Positions 2,115 to 55,242 of a stretch of DNA of 64,000 nucleotides are shown here, piece after piece. Where the stretch lies: NCBI GenBank assembly GCA_000182565.2, contig KQ257450.1. The stretch is one strand, 5' to 3'. Made by a program: the position numbers and the translations under genes. Each line of letters begins with the position of its first letter. Positions within the stretch are counted from its first letter, which is position 1. This stretch comes from Spizellomyces punctatus DAOM BR117. Taxonomy: Eukaryota. The notes beneath the pieces were generated by a model. It saw nothing but the letters and a program-made list of their open reading frames with translations. It was not told the origin of the DNA and searched no databases.

Positions 2115-3236
2115 CTACATGATATTGCATTCCTGACCTCCAGGCCCCCCAGGAAGCTTGGGCATCCCATCCGCTCCAATTTCGAGACCAGGGGCAAGTT
2201 CCTGGAGTATTTCATCTGGTGGGTTGCCGCACTCTTGCATCTGCCAAAGAAGTAAGTTTCAATGCTGACTGATTGCCAAGCTTCCTATCACCCACCTTTT
2301 GCATCAGATCGGCAACTCTCTTCCCATCCTCTTCACTCGTCTCTGCCGTTGTTGAGGCATCGTAAATATGAACAATTTCCACGATATATTCGTGCTGCCT
2401 TCTATATTTCTCCATTTCCTCCTGTGAAAGCTTCGATTCGTTTGCTGCCAACCATTGGGGATACTGCAACGACACAATTAGCTTAATTCCAGAAACCTTC
2501 TCGACGACCCCTTTTCAGCTCACCTTCGTTGCCAAATCCTTCATTGGTTCATACAAAAGCTCCTTAGACATGAGCTGGTCCATTAATCCGCCAAACATGC
2601 CATCAAAGTCGCCTGAGCTCATCATCCCTTCTAATTCTTTCATCATCTGCTCCATTGCCTCCTCACTCATGCCTCCGGTAAGCGATGCCAGCTTTGCATC
2701 TTCTGCGACCTGTTGCTCAACCTTATCGGAACTATCTCGTAGTTTGTGCATAGTTTGTGCAATTGTCTCTTGGAAGGATTTTTGTTGGGTTGGTTTTGGT
2801 GCTGGCGTTCTTTCGGGGTTTAGTGCATCTCGCGATGACGATGGTTGTTGTTGACTGCTTTGCCCTGGCTCAGAGGCCACCTGTAGCTCCTTGAAGGTAT
2901 CTAGCAGTTTGGACATGGCATTGTTTATTTCGGGATTTGCGGCCTCTCCTTCTTCCCCAAAGCTCTCCTTAAAAAGCTGCTCCATATTTGAAGCAAGCTG
3001 TCGCGCAAAGTCGTCATCGAATCCCGTATCCGCGATAGCACTGGAACTGACTGAGGTTGAGGACACTGCAGGCTGGACGGGTGGTGGAGGAGCGGTGAAA
3101 TCGTCCAGGACATCTTTGTTGTAAACAGAGTCAGGTGCCTCCTAGAGGCTGCCTAATTTGCCCATGTAAATCGCAGAATCTTACCGTCCAGATACGAATC
3201 AAGGTCGTCTACGTTGTCGGTCGGTTTCGCTGCCAT
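2115..3236 (-). CDS. PEX19: Peroxisomal membrane protein import receptor Pex19 (multi-exon)
   Basis: N-term DDLDSYLD, core LMSKELLYEPMKDLATK..YPQWL, QMQECGNPP, C-terminal CaaX CNIM*. Confidence 0.95.
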
Positions 3237-3435
3237 TTTCTCACTTTGTAGGCCACGATCCGGACGGGTTTGCAGATGCCTTCCACACGTTGACACATCA
3301 ATTTGGCCGTGCTGTTGCCATGGCGATCTGATGATCATGATCTTGGGGTCGAGGCCGCATTCCTTCCCATCCATTCCTTCCACAACGATGCTAATGGTGA
3401 GTCGTGCGAGGTCCAAGTTGTCGAGCTGTACTGAG

Positions 3436-3552
3436 ATGTGCTGTGATGAATTACTTGGCGTGTCATCCGAGGCTTTCCGCACCCTGTCCTTCGGGACAGG
3501 TACTCAGTTACGCGGCTAGTCGATGAGGGGCGCGCAGGGGAACTGAGCATGT
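3436..3552 (+). ncRNA. Box C/D snoRNA with two guides complementary to U6 snRNA
   Basis: Box C GTGATGA 3443-3449, D' CCGA 3467-3470, C'-like TCGATGA 3520-3526, D CTGA 3543-3546, terminal stem ATGTGC/GCATGT, guides GCGTGTCAT and GCGCAGGGG; lies in a GT-AG intron 3397-3650. Confidence 0.85.
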
Positions 3553-4036
3553 TTTCACAACGTCGATTTGGATTGAAATAGGGATTAGCGAATGAAATGG
3601 GTCTAGAGCTGACATCTTTCCGTCGTTTTCTTTCAATTTTCTTGCTACAGAGGCCTACAAGTACCAGTTTTAGAACTCAGTTGACGCAGAGAGACGCATG
3701 TACCAGTCAATGCAAGGACAGGTAAGAAGGTAAAACTTCGATGTTGAAGACGATTCATCCGCTATGCGACACAGCAAGAATGGGGTATTGATCAGCCTAG
3801 AGAGCAATTTGTGGCAACAAAGCTGATTAGTCCACCATTGGTTTGGGGCTGTTATTCCTAGAAGATAGACGTAGTCAATCCGTTTGTGATGTATGGCGAC
3901 CTACTAGATATCAATAATACATGAGCTAGTTCACAAAAGAGAAGCAAATGAGGTCTCTGAGATCAGCAAACGCGAGGTTCACAAAACCAGCTAGGAGGTG
4001 ATCTCTTGAAATTTCACAACCAATCCACATGCCGCC

Positions 4037-5317
4037 ATGACATCCGAAGGTTAGATCCCTGTTGCCTATTTGTCAAAGGTCAACTCCTTAACTGTCCCTC
4101 TATAGAGAGCATAAACCTTCTTGCCGTCGTCATTGACACAAACCCAATAGCATGGGCAACCGCGGCGCAAGACTCTCGGTGCCCGCTAGACTTTGGTCGA
4201 GTCCTAGAGCAATTGCTTATTTTCATCAACGCCCACCTCGCCTTGCGGTTCGACAACGAGTTGGTGGTAATCGCCAGTCATACAAACCAGAGGTTCGTTG
4301 AGCAGTTTGCCGAAATCTCGTCTTTCGTTGCTCACTTTTGGCTCCCACACAGTCTCTTTCTTTACCCTCCACAACTGTCTGATACAGACCAACCACCAGA
4401 TGCTTCTTCCAAACCGGCCAATACATATAAGCAATTTTTCGATGTCAATCAAGCAGTCATTAAAACCTTGAAGGATTTAATTACCGAAAGCAAATCGCCC
4501 GAAGACGTTGATGGTATGGTTTGCTTGATATTATTATTATCATTCGTGAATGCTCACAGTTGCATGCACATAGATAAATCGATGCTTGCTGGTTCCCTCT
4601 CCCTAGCACAAACATGTATGTCTATCATTTGTCTTGTATGCCGAGCGTGAACCACATATGCAAACAAACCATTCTAAGATATCAATCGAATACGGCGAGC
4701 AAATGATCCAACGCCATTACAATCCCGAATCTTGATACTATCCGTCTCTCCTGACCTACCGTCTCAGTACGTCGCAACTATGAACTGCATATTTGCTGCT
4801 CAGAGAGTGGTAAGTGAAGGTCTTTCCAATAACTGCCCGACACGACAGTAACTTCATGAAATGCAGGGTACACGAATAGACGTTTGTCGCTTTCGTGGGA
4901 AGCACTATGGGGAGGAATCGGTGTTCCTTCCTCAAGCATGTCATCTCACAGGTGGACTTTACATGGAAATACCAGAAGCTGAAAACTTGCTTCAATACTT
5001 GCTGGTAAGTGCCCAAATGGGGAATTACGCTATCTGTCTCCATTCGTAACAGATCTCTTGCAGTATGCTTTTCTACCTGACCCGTATATGCGATCCGTCC
5101 TTTGTCTACCGGAAAAAGATCAAGTCGATTTTCGGGCTGCTTGCTTCTGTCATAAGACTGTGGTCGATGTCGGCTATGTATGCTCCGTATGTTTATCAAG
5201 TAAGGATTGCGATGTACCACTATCAGCCAACGTGTGATCAATGACCAGTCGATCTTAGTTTTTTGTAGTGTTTCCAAACAATGTCCTACATGCCAGACGC
5301 AATTCGGTGGGCAATAA
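4037..5317 (+). CDS. TFB4: TFIIH subunit Tfb4/p34 (multi-exon)
   Basis: LLAVVIDTNP, INAHLAL, QYVATMNCIFAAQ, VDFRAACFCH, GYVCSVCLS, CPTC zinc finger. Confidence 0.95.
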
Positions 5318-11796: not shown

Positions 11797-14411
11797 ATGG
11801 CGGTAAGTAAATGAACTCGGCTGCCATAGTCGCAATCTAGTGCTAGACCATCAGAAGCCAATATCATTACCCGTCACCTCCCACAATTTCTAATTACTTG
11901 TTGTGGACAGTCCCGAGGAGAAGCCGTGAAGGTAGTGGTGCGATGTCGACCTTTCAGCGAAAAGGAGAAGGCCGCCGGTCATTCAAACATCGTTAGCATC
12001 GACAAAGCTGCTGCAACAGTATCAATTGTCGATCCGAGATCTGGAGCAGATCCACTACCAAAGACGTTCACCTTCGACAGTGTATTCGACTTGGCCAGTA
12101 GCCAGCAGGAGGTTTACAACACCACGGCTAGACCGATCGTTGAAAGTGTGCTTGCCGGATACAATGGCACAATTTTTGCTTATGGACAAACGGGGACAGG
12201 CAAGGTAAGGAATGCGTAAATGAACAACTCACAACACCGAATAATAGCTGATTCATTTTCCTCAGACATTTTCGATGGAAGGCGTTCGTGATGTTCCCGA
12301 ACTTCGTGGTATCATACCTAATGCTTTCGAACATATATTTGCGGAGATTTCTCTGGCGGACAAGTCAACCCAGTTCCTTGTTCGCGCCTCCTACCTCGAG
12401 ATATACAATGAAGACATTCACGATCTTTTGAACCCGAAAGCTGGAAAGCTTGATATAAAGGAGCGCGCAGACATTGGAATCTACGTCAAAGACTTGCGAA
12501 ATTTTGTCATTAAAGATGTAGAGGAGATGGACAGACTCATGTCGTTTGGAAACAAGAACCGGTCGGTTGGAGCTACAGAGATGAACGCGCGGAGTTCGAG
12601 AAGTCACTCCATCTTTTCCATAACGGTAGAGGCAAGCGAAAAGGGACCTGACGGAGAGGAGCACATCAGAGCTGGGAAACTGCACCTAGTCGATCTTGCC
12701 GGCTCTGAGCGCCAAAGTAAAACTGGTGCGACTGGCGAACGTCTTAAAGAAGCCACAAAGATCAATTTGTCTCTGTCAGCTTTGGGGAACGTAATTAGTG
12801 CTTTGGTGGACGGAAAGAGTTCCCATATACCATATCGAGACTCTAAGTTAACAAGATTACTGCAAGACTCGCTTGGAGGCAATGCAAAGACCTTAATGGT
12901 TGCGACCATGAGTCCTGCGAGCTACAATTTTGATGAGACACTCTCAACTCTACGGTATGCAAACAGAGCGAAGAGCATCAAGAACAAGCCGAAGATTAAT
13001 GAGGATCCCAAGGTACGGCAATACTCTGGACATTGACCCGGTGTGCTCAACTTGCGTTTTCTCATCGTCATGTTTCATTCAGGATGCCATGTTGCGCGAG
13101 TTCCAAGAGGAGATTAAACGTCTGAAGGCCCAACTGGAGCAAATGGACAGTTCGGGTATTGTTCCAGGAGCAGAACCAATCGTTCAAGAGGTGGAAGAGA
13201 TCGAGGAAGTGGAAGAATTCGAGGAGATTGAAGCACCCGAAGAAGCAGTAGCAGTACCTAACAAACCTCCTAAGCCGAAGAAGGTAAAAGTTAAGAAGGC
13301 CATACCCACATTCGAAAAGGGCACCGAGCAAGCACAGACGTCTCCAGGTGATCATGAGAAGCAGCTGGAAGAAATGCAGGCACAAGTGGAGGCCGAAAAG
13401 AGGCACATTCTTGAATCGAAAGGAATGGCGGAATCTGAGCGCAACCGCCTGTTGGCAGACTTGAATGCACGTGCGAATGAACTCGAGGCAGAGCGCGAAG
13501 CTCGAGGCCAACTGACTGCGAAGCTTTCTCAACTGGAACAGAAGCTCTTGATTGGTGGCGTGAACGCCGTCGATAGACATGAGGAACAAAAACTGTTGCT
13601 GGCGAAGCGGGAACAGGAATTAGAAGAACGAGCAAGACGGGAGCGCGAGCTCGCAAGAGAGATAGAGGAGCACGAAGAGACGGGGTTGCAGATCGAGGAG
13701 GAATTTTCGTCACTTCAAGAAGAGGCTGCTGTCAAAACTAGAAAGCTCAAAAAGCTCTGGAATCTTCTCATGCGACACAAATCGGAAATCAAAGATCTAC
13801 AAGAGGAGCACCAAAGAGAACGAGAGCAGCTACTCGATACAGTCCGAGATCTAACCCGAGAACTCAAGCTCAGAATGTTGGTCATTGATTCGTTTGTACC
13901 CAGAGAATCCCTAGACCTTTTAGAATCGTTCGCCGAATATGACGAAACAAGCGAAAAATGGCGAATAGGGCACATTGCCCATGCTGGAAATAACATTCGC
14001 GGTAAACGAAGCTTGGTGTCTGGGTTGCCATTGCACCGCGACCATTATGGAGCAGGAGGAGATCAAGGGATGGATGGCGAGGAGCCTCCATGGGACCCTA
14101 TGTCTGGGTTCCCTGATCCATATCTCACATATGACGAGCCAGTCAAATCAGCTAAAAAGAAGACAAGCGGAGGCGATGTACGAAAGAAGAGCTCTGCAAC
14201 AGGAGAAAGATCACCAAACAGAAGAACACGGCCGCCATCAGCGGCCAGAAAGTCGCCCACCAAAGTGAGCAGTGGGCGAGACAAAGCGACAGCGAGACAT
14301 GCGGGTGGTAGTGGGAGTGTATCTGGCAGCTTGGAAAACACGGAAGCCAACAATCCGCCTGCGGCTCCGTCAGCGAGAGGACTGGTCGGCAAGAGTAAAC
14401 ACTATGCATGA
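11797..14411 (+). CDS. KIF3: Heterotrimeric kinesin-II motor subunit (KIF3/FLA10 family)
   Basis: [10 protein letters not shown]-loop [51 protein letters not shown]; 6-nt first coding exon ATGGCG|gtaagt. Confidence 0.93.
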
Positions 14412-39852: not shown

Positions 39853-39924
39853 GGGGCCTTGGCGCAACGGTAGCGCGTCTGACTCCAGATCAGAAGGTTA
39901 TGTGTTCGAATCACATAGGCCTCA
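39853..39924 (+). tRNA. tRNA-Trp (anticodon CCA), intronless
   Basis: Cloverleaf: GGGGCCT/AGGCCTC acceptor, GCGC D-stem, TCTGA-CTCCAGA-TCAGA anticodon arm, ATGTG-TTCGAAT-CACAT T-arm. Confidence 0.96.
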
Positions 39925-41364: not shown

Positions 41365-42982
41365 GTTACATTCCCCAAAATCACATGGACCTCCTCACCG
41401 ATAGCGTCTCGACAGCGTCTCTTTTGCCGCTGGATTCAAAGAAATACACGAACGGCGATACTTGGAGCAGAAGACTCTGTCGCGAAGACAAGTACGCTTC
41501 GGCTCCTCGAATCCCGTAGACCTCACCATTTGCACTTTATCATTTCCTTTGAAACACTCGGCAGTCTCTAAAAAAATCTAGAGTCAGAAAGGTTGACTTG
41601 AACCACAAGAGCGACCTGCATACCCTATAGACGGGAGGGCGAGACGATGACTCTTTGTTGGATCGTTTTCAAATTACCCACAGGCTGCACCTAAAAGAGC
41701 ACTTTAACCATCCCACCACTTGACTACAATTAGAGTAATTGGCGTCCTCGAGACGTTGAACTTGAGCCAATTCAGCGTTGCGGCGTTCTTCAAAATCAAT
41801 CGTGCCGATTGAGAGAGTCTGAAATTTCACGTAGAAGTGGCTCGCGCAATGTAGATAAATTACAATACCTGATGCCTTCTGAGCTGTCCAACTCCTCCGC
41901 CTCATGCACCCCCATCAAAGCCTACTCAATGGTATTGATTCCTTCTTGTGTACTGAGCAGCCGAGTGTGGGATCGATCGTATTCCTTTTCGAGAATATAG
42001 ATGCTGAACAGGACTCCATTCCTGTAAAGAACGAATCCGCATAAATGAATAGACATCAGCTATAACCATTGTTGCAGCATGAACAAGGTGCAGATACAAG
42101 AAGCATTGTGATGGCGCTCACCAACATTGTGCATCTTCTTTTTTGGTTTGAAACCACCACTCTTACAGAGCTAGTTCACTTCTCGCCTCCAAGATGGAGA
42201 TTTCATCGCATTAATTCAATCAACTGTTGACCGCATTTCCATTAGCAATTCATAGTCATGCTTTCTGCATGATTGCCCAGCTGAGTGAGTAGCGATTGTA
42301 GCGAGGTAGCAGTGGTATATTTGAATCACTTGCAACTCGTATCAATGGATTCACGGTCAAGCTGTACGATTTGAATTATGCGTATAAATGGGTGGCCTAT
42401 GAAGGACTAGCCAATACGTATTGGTCATATAGAAGCACTTGTGAGCTTGACCAAGTGAGTACTTGGAACTTGAGTTGTAGGGCCGTTTCTCACTTTCTTT
42501 GGACGACGTGGTTGAATCACACTAACCTTTCGCAACATGTCTTTCCTGTTTGGATGCACCTCCCATGAACGAGGATTGACTTTGGGGACCGACGCTTGAT
42601 TTGGAACACTCGGCAGCCTCTACGAGCAAGTATTGATTCCCCACGGTCTTTTTTTGTTTGGATCTCTCGATAGCCTCCCACAGTTTACATCCCTCGACCA
42701 TCACCCACGAGCAAGAATTGACTCTGGAGACCGACGATTGGATCCCTCGACAGCCTCTGACGAGCCGGGATTGAGAATGGATCTGATCGGCCCAAATAAC
42801 AAAACTCTTGCCTTGTACCGGTGGCTACTGGCACCAGACATTTCCTCCTATTTGTTCGCCATTAAGGGAACACTGTGCTCATTTCCAATTACTTGTAATT
42901 GCGCTATAAGGTACATGTCATGATTCGGTAAGTTGATTGGGCTTCTTGTAATTGCCTTTGTATGGGATACATGTCAGGAGAA

Positions 42983-43878
42983 NNNNNNNNNNNNNNNNNN
43001 NNNNNNNNNNNNNNNNNNNNNNNNNNNNNNNNNNNNNNNNNNNNNNNNNNNNNNNNNNNNNNNNNNNNNNNNNNNNNNNNNNNNNNNNNNNNNNNNNNNN
43101 NNNNNNNNNNNNNNNNNNNNNNNNNNNNNNNNNNNNNNNNNNNNNNNNNNNNNNNNNNNNNNNNNNNNNNNNNNNNNNNNNNNNNNNNNNNNNNNNNNNN
43201 NNNNNNNNNNNNNNNNNNNNNNNNNNNNNNNNNNNNNNNNNNNNNNNNNNNNNNNNNNNNNNNNNNNNNNNNNNNNNNNNNNNNNNNNNNNNNNNNNNNN
43301 NNNNNNNNNNNNNNNNNNNNNNNNNNNNNNNNNNNNNNNNNNNNNNNNNNNNNNNNNNNNNNNNNNNNNNNNNNNNNNNNNNNNNNNNNNNNNNNNNNNN
43401 NNNNNNNNNNNNNNNNNNNNNNNNNNNNNNNNNNNNNNNNNNNNNNNNNNNNNNNNNNNNNNNNNNNNNNNNNNNNNNNNNNNNNNNNNNNNNNNNNNNN
43501 NNNNNNNNNNNNNNNNNNNNNNNNNNNNNNNNNNNNNNNNNNNNNNNNNNNNNNNNNNNNNNNNNNNNNNNNNNNNNNNNNNNNNNNNNNNNNNNNNNNN
43601 NNNNNNNNNNNNNNNNNNNNNNNNNNNNNNNNNNNNNNNNNNNNNNNNNNNNNNNNNNNNNNNNNNNNNNNNNNNNNNNNNNNNNNNNNNNNNNNNNNNN
43701 NNNNNNNNNNNNNNNNNNNNNNNNNNNNNNNNNNNNNNNNNNNNNNNNNNNNNNNNNNNNNNNNNNNNNNNNNNNNNNNNNNNNNNNNNNNNNNNNNNNN
43801 NNNNNNNNNNNNNNNNNNNNNNNNNNNNNNNNNNNNNNNNNNNNNNNNNNNNNNNNNNNNNNNNNNNNNNNNNNNNNN
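42983..43878. other. Assembly gap (N run)
   Basis: Contiguous Ns. Confidence 1.
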
Positions 43879-44295
43879 TCACGACTACCAACTACCTTGA
43901 CGTATCCATAAGGTTTTAACATTATTAAGACAGGGACACTGGGTCTTACGGCTCTAGATTCCGGCTTGTCAAATATGGTTCTCCTTAGCTGGCTAGGGCT
44001 TGACTGACGTGAGATAGTAACCGTTTATCCCGGCTACCGCATCATCTATGGTACAACGTTATAGGAAGAGCCGTTTAATGTCGCCGATCGGAATCGACAA
44101 CACGTGCATATGGGTGGACTTTTGGACTATGGATGCGCGCACTTTGGGCGGGCCTTGCGATTTCAAGGTGCACCGAAGATAGCTGCTAGAGCATCTAGCG
44201 TGTTTTTGTTGCGGGCGCCGCGGTTCGAGTAAGGTCAAATAGTTGCAAATGTCTGGAAATCTTAGTCAAGGCCACTTGGCGCAACATTGACAACC

Positions 44296-53372: not shown

Positions 53373-55242
53373 TTAGCAGTGTGGCGGCCTGCGCAGGACC
53401 AATGGGAGGCAGAGTGGGCAGATACATTTCGTTGTGTATAGAGGGCTGCTGAGCCGACCCTCTTGATCTCCGCGTGCACCCCGTTCAACGATGATCACGA
53501 TGATGTCCTCCATCTCTGTAAGTTGCTCTATCCTCATGAGGATAGCGCCCATCCATTCCCCTGCCGCTGCGGCCATTGTATGAACTTCGTCCAAAGTTTC
53601 TCCTGTCACCATCGCGTCTGCCGTAGGGTGAGAAGCGTTCAGTCGAGCGGCGGTCTTGGTGACTGTGGCGCTCTTGCCATTGCCTTTCCGGTGGAGGGGG
53701 CTATCGTATGATACGCCGATTCAAAGTCAGAGACCGTCCACATAGTGATAATGTAGTTCCAGCAACTTACGTCCGGGATTGGTAGTTTCCATTCTCGTAA
53801 GCATCTGTTTCTCACTTCTATTTGATCGAAAGATGAGAGCGATGGATCATCCGCATACTTTCGCAGTTCCTGCAGAGCTTCGGTTTGCCGGATGCAAAGT
53901 CTGTTCATGGCTTGTTAGGTCTTATGATATCTGAGACTACAGGAAGCAGACCAAACTGACCTCATGTTCACCGACCGCACACGGTCAATGAACTTTTCGT
54001 CGCCGTTAACAGCGTCCCTGTCCATTAGCCCCGTAACTTCCAACGCATCTTTTGCCTGATGTGCCCGCAGATCGTTCATTCGATCGTTAACGGCGAAGAG
54101 GTGTTCGATAATTCGGGGAGGATGTGGCACACGTAGATTACGGCAAACTATGTACCTTTCAGCAGTATCAGGTGGACTCGCCAGAGGTTTCACTATCGTT
54201 ACTTTCTCAAAGCATCGATAGAGAATGTATAGGATATCAACAGTGAACGGCGTAAATACATCGAAAATTTGCATCACAAAGTCGCCATGTTTCCTCAGGA
54301 CCAAAAGCGCTGCCAAGACTTGACACAAGACCAGCTGTCGTATGTGATATTCTTGATTGCCCGCAATGTCAATTTCGCCGCTGTCTGCCATCACGAGATC
54401 TAATCCCTCGTTATTCGTCGCGTATTCAACCAACTCATGAAAGCCGCGGATATTTTCGTTTTTTCGCAGATCGCCAGTGCCATCTCCATAAAATGGTTCA
54501 AATAGTTGCTTCACGCAACTATCTGGATGCATCCTGTCCAGAGCAGAATCCTGTCTGCCTCGTGAAGTCATTCCCCATCCTCGGATTGGTATTCCCCTCG
54601 CGTTTGCTCGCCAGAGCAGATACTCTGTGAATCCGCCCGGTCCTGAACATAAATCAGCGAATCGTAATTCACCAGTACCCGTTCGCGCATTTATGTCTGT
54701 GAATTGAAAAAGAGCGTCCATATTTGCCATCTTGACTGCAGTTGGATATGCAAAGATGGATTTCCCCAGGCATTGGTAGGGATTAGCTCGGGACTTGGCT
54801 CTGTACATATCTTGCGGTGCAAGATCCTTCAGCTTCTCCTTTGCGGCAACAAGGTTCTCCACAATGGTTTTCTCACAAAATCGGCTGTAGTCGGTTTCTC
54901 CTACCTAAGCTCGAATCCCATTTAACGTGTGAAACAAAGAAAATCGTTGTTTAACTTACAACTGACCTCTTCCACCAAAATGCGTAAGTGCTGCAGCCAT
55001 TCATCATCTTCCAAACTCGCGTCGCATACCATCCATTGCACAGACTGTTCGTGAGCAACAGTTTTATCCGTCCTGTAGACTGCTGGCGATGGCGGAAATG
55101 CACGATCTACAGGTGCTCTTCCGTTGTCATGTCGGTTTCGAAGTCTTGGGGGTGTGAGCTGTGGAGGTGGGACTGGGGATACTAGCGGGGTTGCAATGTA
55201 CTCGGGGTCGTCCGTGTAAAGGTCGTTCCCGGTGGTTGCCAT
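53373..55242 (-). CDS. CMTR1: Cap-specific 2'-O-methyltransferase CMTR1-like (FtsJ domain), catalytically divergent
   Basis: RAKSRANPY, AVKMANMD, FADLCSGPGGFTEY, GDGTGDL, LVMADSG, IVKPLAS..ERYIVC. Confidence 0.85.

Follow-up and report, generated by a model that had tools for sequence, protein, structure and literature searches.

The window analysed here, a 64,000-nt stretch of contig KQ257450.1 from Spizellomyces punctatus DAOM BR117 (GenBank assembly GCA_000182565.2), carries a putative box C/D small nucleolar RNA (snoRNA) at 3436-3552 on the forward strand. This element sits in an 800-nt spacer between two divergent genes, PEX19 and TFB4. The former was recognized on the reverse strand at 2515-3141 (Pfam Pex19, E 1.3e-27), with its ATG near 3236 by direct reading, and the latter on the forward strand at 4102-4479 (Pfam Tfb4, E 1.7e-15), with an ATG at 4037 that is followed by a small intron.

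RNA-seq reads of run X8, which bears the same species label, were then inspected over the region 3150-4150; they amounted to 247 reads, 246 of them first mates. Runs X1, X2, and X9 gave 0 reads over 3150-4150, and no inference was drawn from them. In the X8 reads, AT was read in place of genomic CA in 28 of 30 reads at 3648 and in 27 of 30 at 3649, and the loose 5′ parts of reads beginning at 3650 ended in GCTAAT, corresponding to a junction GCTAATG(3396)/AGGCC(3651). These junction reads thus define a 254-nt intron at 3397-3650 with the ends GTGAGT and CTACAG, and the GT-AG ends place the host RNA on the forward strand. The snoRNA lies within this intron; it begins 39 nt downstream of the 5′ splice site, and another 98 nt separate its end from the 3′ splice site. 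A branch-like CTGAC motif occurs at 3609 (+), ~57 nt downstream of the snoRNA. Placement in a spliced intron is shared with many box C/D snoRNAs, according to a Neurospora crassa study.

Depth in X8 was 0 at 3252-3319 and 3354-3387 in both orientations, and 5.5 at 3388-3421. Because coverage starts so abruptly at ~3388, from which we infer the transcription start, the first exon of the host (3388-3396, +) is seemingly only ~9 nt long. The second exon (3651-3940, +) was covered at a depth of 19-91, falling to 3 at 3932-3965 and to 0 beyond; an AATAAT motif is found ~15-20 nt upstream of the end of coverage. The spliced host RNA measures ~300 nt and its longest ATG-started open reading frame has 27 codons, indicating that the host transcript is apparently non-coding. 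The few reads over the 5′ end of Tfb4 (3966-4135; depth 0.8-2.5) were oriented opposite to the host-gene reads, though Tfb4 also lies on the forward strand, and these may come from an antisense transcript or from imperfect strandedness of the library.

The intron itself was covered unevenly. Depth was 5.5, 6.5, 5.5, and 2.1 over the four bins of 3388-3523 and 0.03, 0.15, and 1.0 over the three bins of 3524-3625, which we estimate to represent ~14 reads versus ~1, so that a uniformly covered unspliced precursor does not account for the signal. Given ~50-base first mates from inserts of at least ~80 nt, this depth profile would be consistent with molecules whose 3′ ends lie close to the D box of the element. 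The reads start at ~3388 rather than at 3436, and the last ~30 nt of the element are uncovered. As they begin at the 5′ end of the transcript, they look like a 5′-extended species and not the mature RNA, and a cDNA library of this kind neither shows nor excludes an RNA of ~117 nt.

The anatomy of the element was determined by direct reading and a script. When the longest possible terminal stem is counted, the whole box C/D unit spans 3433-3555 (+), and 3436-3552 is the version with the 6-bp core stem, ATGTGC/GCATGT (3436-3441/3547-3552), which includes two G-U pairs and grows to 9 bp with G-U pairs (3433-3441/3547-3555). One unpaired T separates the 5′ half of the stem from the C box GTGATGA (3443-3449; consensus RUGAUGA), which was found by both approaches and is aligned with its counterpart in the Rfam SNORD10 model. 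After an 8-nt spacer follows the 9-nt D′ guide GCGTGTCAT (3458-3466), directly abutted by a D′ box CCGA (3467-3470), one base off CUGA. A structured linker of 49 nt (3471-3519) connects the D′ box with the C′ box; in it, nested stems (GGCT/AGTC and CCGC/GCGG) surround a 7-bp hairpin with a TTCG loop, CCTGTCC-TTCG-GGACAGG (3483-3500). The C′ box (T)CGATGA (3520-3526; CGATGA at 3521-3526) is likewise one base off its consensus, UGAUGA. The 9-nt D guide GCGCAGGGG (3532-3540), preceded by GGGGC, is separated by a two-base spacer, AA, from a canonical D box CTGA (3543-3546), which was also found by sequence reading and by script. The guide spacers are balanced, with 17 nt from C to D′ and 16 nt from C′ to D, and the two halves are therefore nearly symmetrical. 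All these parts lie on the forward strand, and together the C and D boxes, the terminal stem, the internal D′ and C′ boxes (each one base off), and the intronic context are among the features by which the class is recognized.

These data largely agree with the original prediction, which had been made from the sequence. The coordinates of the element, its terminal stem, and the UUCG hairpin at 3483-3500 were confirmed by direct reading and script, and the double-guide box C/D anatomy was borne out by the sequence, the script scan described below, and the fold of the linker. The description of all boxes as canonical held for C and D, but D′ (CCGA versus CUGA) and C′ (CGAUGA versus UGAUGA) proved to be near-consensus only.

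Folded alone, the linker reached -21.7 kcal/mol (z -1.94), with 10 of 200 shuffles equally stable, and this fold juxtaposes the D′ and C′ boxes. The whole RNA folded like its shuffles (z -0.08), and its minimum-energy structure pairs both guide regions together. A whole-RNA fold no better than shuffles is usual for C/D RNAs, the guides of which are meant to stay single-stranded. A linker segment, CTCAGTTACGCGGC (3503-3516), is 79% complementary to GCAGGGGAACTGAG (3534-3547, comprising the D guide and D box), a competing pairing that could hide the D guide as long as the RNA is naked.

Directly upstream of the element, 112 nt at 3322-3435 (+) resembles a tandem duplicate of the snoRNA unit that has degenerated, with 49 of 114 positions identical at an offset of -112 (null mean 28.3, sd 4.6); this was the best non-self value in the window. 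The collinear matches include TGATGA, CTTGG.GT, CA.CC..TCCTTC, and ACTGAG; the guide, the hairpin, and the stem are missing from this copy.

To relate the element to known RNA families, Rfam was searched with permissive thresholds over 3300-3700 (401 bases). The best match was SNORD10/mgU6-77 (RF01290) with 22.8 bits and E 0.0056, which falls short of the family's gathering cut-off of 37 bits; it was the only match with E below 1 in this search, and on the whole window its E was 0.9. Its alignment runs from the C box through the guide GCGUGUCAU to the D′ box and keeps the order and register of the model consensus, whose 9-nt guide is identical to the D′ guide here. The 3′ half alone (3476-3570) returned chance-level matches and no snoRNA family, and SNORD94 gave no match at E up to 10 on either 3300-3700 or 3476-3570. 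By the Rfam criterion, the element is SNORD10-like in its 5′ half and is not a member of the family.

In addition to the shared order and register of C box, guide, and D′ box, the element resembles SNORD10/mgU6-77 in having a long internal hairpin between its halves and a double guide. It differs from SNORD10 in its D′ box, which is CCGA and not CUGA, and from vertebrate mgU6-77 in its second guide, which is predicted to be aimed at the U6 C-run (C62), whereas the second target reported for mgU6-77 is 28S rRNA. With SNORD94/U94 the element shares the predicted target nucleotide of its D guide, U6 C62; no sequence or model similarity to SNORD94, which is a separate RNA in humans, was seen.

The target segments considered here are those of the conserved U6 core quoted in the original prediction. 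Both guides are exact 9-mers against the quoted segments, which are 4 nt apart. The fifth base upstream of the D′ box is G3462, which would pair with U6 C77, and as the D′ guide is identical to that of the SNORD10 consensus, its predicted target is that of SNORD10, namely, C77. With the two-base AA spacer counted, G3538 is fifth upstream of the D box, and its predicted partner is the third C of the U6 C-run, taken here as human C62 in a numbering that agrees with the base identities of all modified positions given in reviews. The predicted targets thus lie on either side of the U6 internal stem-loop, that of the D′ guide (the C77-equivalent) on its 3′ side and that of the D guide (the C62-equivalent, in the C-run segment) on its 5′ side. 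The D-guide duplex with the quoted U6 would comprise 8 G-C pairs of 9. Both duplexes would be just 9 bp, at the short end for C/D guides, and the flanking G3457, C3531, and A3541 would extend neither. The 3′ U6 target segment was confirmed by a published mouse U6 reverse primer, which contains GCGTGTCATCC; according to that primer, the two C's of the D′ box also complement two G's preceding the 3′ target. The C77 guide claimed at the outset is supported by its match to the Rfam SNORD10 consensus in both sequence and register, the hit itself being sub-threshold.

The order of the two guides (3458-3470 and 3532-3540) is the 5′-to-3′ order of contiguous antisense U6, and if the CC of the D′ box is added to the guides, only two bases of a U6 stretch of 22 nt would remain uncovered; the element resembles an antisense U6 segment interrupted by a D′-hairpin-C′ module. 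An origin as a relic of an antisense U6 pseudogene was rejected, since the flanks outside the guides depart from antisense U6 and a full C/D architecture is present. A U6 gene was not found in the 64-kb window either at the Rfam gathering score or at E up to 5, and the 22-nt U6 motif gave 0 matches in the window at up to 3 mismatches.

How readily such an arrangement could arise by chance was then assessed. Both strands of the 64-kb window were scanned by a script for RTGATGA followed by CTGA within ~50-200 nt and flanked by a stem of at least 5 bp, and the element at 3436-3552 was the sole C/D-shaped candidate. Block shuffles of the window contained 0.46 such shapes on average and at most 2, indicating that the C/D shape alone is not significant. 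The D′ guide joined to its box, GCGTGTCATCNGA, occurred exactly once in the window, with 0.31 occurrences expected at up to one mismatch; the D guide with its spacer and box, GCGCAGGGGNNCTGA, also occurred exactly once, with 0.07 expected at up to one mismatch. By our own estimate, the chance that a guide matches U6 as an exact 9-mer and in the correct register for one of the eight human-methylated nucleotides is ~3e-5, and that of two such guides in one C/D shape is ~1e-8 or less. The two-guide match stands even when the scanning of a few hundred thousand windows is corrected for. The combined dual-guide pattern had 0 matches in a metagenome collection, a result that is usable as an empirical null and yields no homologues.

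The metagenome collection was also scanned with a pattern of the 5′ half, and four loci (L001-L004) were obtained. Three of them (L001, L003, and L004) had the look of bacterial coding DNA when their sequences were read and were dropped as chance matches. The fourth, L002 (2520-2700, +), is on a contig of an AT-rich eukaryote and has a terminal stem, a C box, a D′ box CTGA, an internal hairpin, and a D box; its SNORD10 match, at 18.6 bits, is sub-threshold. L002 has the same C77 guide as the element, in an 11-nt form that is two bases longer upstream, and ACTTG stands just upstream of the guide in both. The two extra bases would presumably extend the pairing with U6. Unlike the element, L002 has a D guide that is unrelated to the U6 C-run, and it would therefore be a single U6 guide. 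It is plausibly a relative, and the only convincing SNORD10-like one found in the metagenome scans. A cyclophilin-like exon lies ~1.4 kb upstream of the L002 RNA.

Human U6 is 2′-O-methylated at A47, A53, G54, C60, C62, C63, A70, and C77, according to a review, and a table in another review assigns Cm77 to SNORD10 and Cm62 to SNORD94; the earlier statement that separate human RNAs guide C62 and C77 is correct by this table. According to the former review, S. cerevisiae U6 is devoid of 2′-O-methylation, in keeping with what had been asserted for budding yeast, and plants and S. pombe keep many of the human sites. One of the first vertebrate U6 guides described is reported to modify both U6 and 28S rRNA.

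Guides to U6 have been described in other fungi. In S. pombe, annotation included a single U6 guide, snoZ30/mgU6-47 (A41), before sno530 (A64) was described, and in N. crassa, CD11 of the snR53 family is intronic, has more than one target, and targets U6 Am47. The main text of a fungal snoRNAome survey gives one U6 target, the D′ target of snR53/CD_11, and an Aspergillus fumigatus screen reported that no U6-targeting snoRNA was found. The main text of the SnoBIRD paper does not deal with U6. Outside fungi, Drosophila is reported to have mgU6-47 and mgU6-68. The element shares with snoZ30, CD11, and sno530 the (here predicted) character of a fungal box C/D RNA directed at U6 ribose methylation, but those RNAs target the human A47 equivalent and S. 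pombe A64. No fungal guide for the C62- or C77-equivalent, nor one RNA with both, appeared in the abstracts and main-text passages searched. Among the matches listed, nothing concerned chytrid U6 guides, and no double U6 guide was described in the passages searched.

We favor, with a probability of roughly 75%, the reading that the element is a working double-guide box C/D snoRNA, encoded in the intron, by which fibrillarin is guided to U6 at the C77- and C62-equivalents. This reading builds on the observed anatomy, on the intron and its splicing, on transcription of the region, and on the identity of the D′ guide to the SNORD10 consensus; from these we infer a stable RNP, the presence of both target segments in the organism's U6, and two methylations. 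The short, spliced, apparently non-coding host transcript would release the RNA from its 254-nt intron, and the RNA would then be expected to join Snu13, Nop56, Nop58, and fibrillarin, the proteins universal to C/D RNPs, while its terminal stem and structured linker keep the C/D and C′/D′ motifs together. Pairing of the D′ guide with the 3′ side of the U6 internal stem-loop would then set the C77-equivalent against the fifth base from D′, and pairing of the D guide with the C-run on the 5′ side would set the C62-equivalent against the fifth base from D. Both riboses would be 2′-O-methylated by fibrillarin, most likely in separate binding events, since a tether of two to four bases is seemingly too short to span both guide sites of one RNP and sequential binding is thus to be expected. 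Its 5′ half and long internal hairpin mark the element as related to vertebrate SNORD10/mgU6-77 or, at the least, as equivalent to it in function. Its sequence is that of a SNORD10-like box C/D snoRNA with predicted direction to U6, in which two U6 guides in one RNA would be unusual but mechanistically ordinary.

A more restricted function would be that of a genuine SNORD10-type snoRNA in which only the D′ guide, directed at C77, acts on U6, with the D guide serving another target (e.g., rRNA), providing accessory pairing, or being inactive. The SNORD10 model recognizes just the 5′ half, the D guide of L002 is unrelated, the D duplex would be no longer than 9 bp, and vertebrate mgU6-77 is reported to modify U6 and 28S rRNA, all of which would suit such a function. 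We nevertheless consider it unlikely, given that the D guide is an exact 9-mer with 8 G-C pairs against U6, 4 nt from the other target, and that it places a human-methylated cytidine at position 5 after a 2-nt spacer, a register with a chance of ~3e-5 by our own arithmetic. It is also conceivable that a real C/D RNP binds the U6 stem-loop without methylating it, as a chaperone for U6 folding or for U4/U6 annealing, or that the U6 sites are unmethylated. The guides do cover both strands of the stem-loop collinearly with antisense U6, leaving two bases uncovered, and an eCLIP study saw lower methylation scores at the predicted sites of novel interactions and read this as a possible methylation-independent function. 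The fifth-base rule, however, is obeyed exactly at human-methylated sites, a register needless for a pure chaperone, and plants and S. pombe reportedly retain U6 methylations, which makes binding without methylation very improbable.

At the other extreme, the element might be non-functional, either as a decaying snoRNA copy or as a chance arrangement in an intron that is degraded after splicing. Chance alone would give 0.46 C/D shapes per window, the degenerate 112-nt duplicate upstream implies that decayed copies occur here, and the X8 reads give no discrete small RNA, which the cDNA library could neither show nor exclude. We give this reading very little credence, because the boxes, the terminal stem, the linker stem, and both guides are intact, because read depth over the element is far above that of the rest of the intron, and because the joint guide match is far beyond chance.

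U6 forms the catalytic centre of the spliceosome, and the role of its ribose methylations is poorly understood, partly because budding yeast lacks them. A chytrid guide to C62 and C77 would be the first fungal one for these positions within the literature searched, and the element would carry SNORD10-type guides beyond vertebrates. With such a guide, a single deletion would suffice to abolish two methylations, one on each strand of the stem-loop, and S. punctatus is reported to be transformable. The element would be an incremental addition to a well-known class and not a new mechanism. A further idea, which we put forward tentatively and regard as rather unlikely, is that the element preserves an ancestral double guide dedicated to U6, in which one snoRNP would serve both strands of the stem-loop and the binding of one guide would free the opposite strand. 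If it is ancestral, vertebrate SNORD10 would have kept the C77 guide and retargeted the second guide to 28S rRNA, and C62 would have passed to a separate RNA. In that case, the origin of guided methylation at the U6 catalytic stem-loop would lie no later than the last shared ancestor of fungi and animals, and chytrids could serve as a tractable system for the role of the U6 methyl groups.

Several other features of the window were recorded. A tRNA gene at 39853-39924 (+; Rfam, 68.6 bits) represents the only RNA family above its gathering score in the window, and an assembly gap of 896 N at ~42974-43880 explains the low GC fraction (0.365) of that 4-kb bin. A 329-aa open reading frame at 53915-54904 (-) has an FtsJ-like methyltransferase domain (E 1.1e-26) and, we presume, resembles cap 2′-O-methyltransferases, which to our knowledge are absent from budding yeast. 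A kinesin-2 (KIF3-type) gene, encoding a flagellar transport motor as fits a zoosporic fungus, lies at 12248-14411 (+); its motor open reading frame (12248-13036) is 100% identical to a protein that NCBI names from Spizellomyces sp. 'palustris', a match that puts the window in Spizellomyces and bears out the chytrid origin implied by the original prediction. Its identity to the proteins of further Spizellomycetales and of Rhizophlyctidales is 91-94%.
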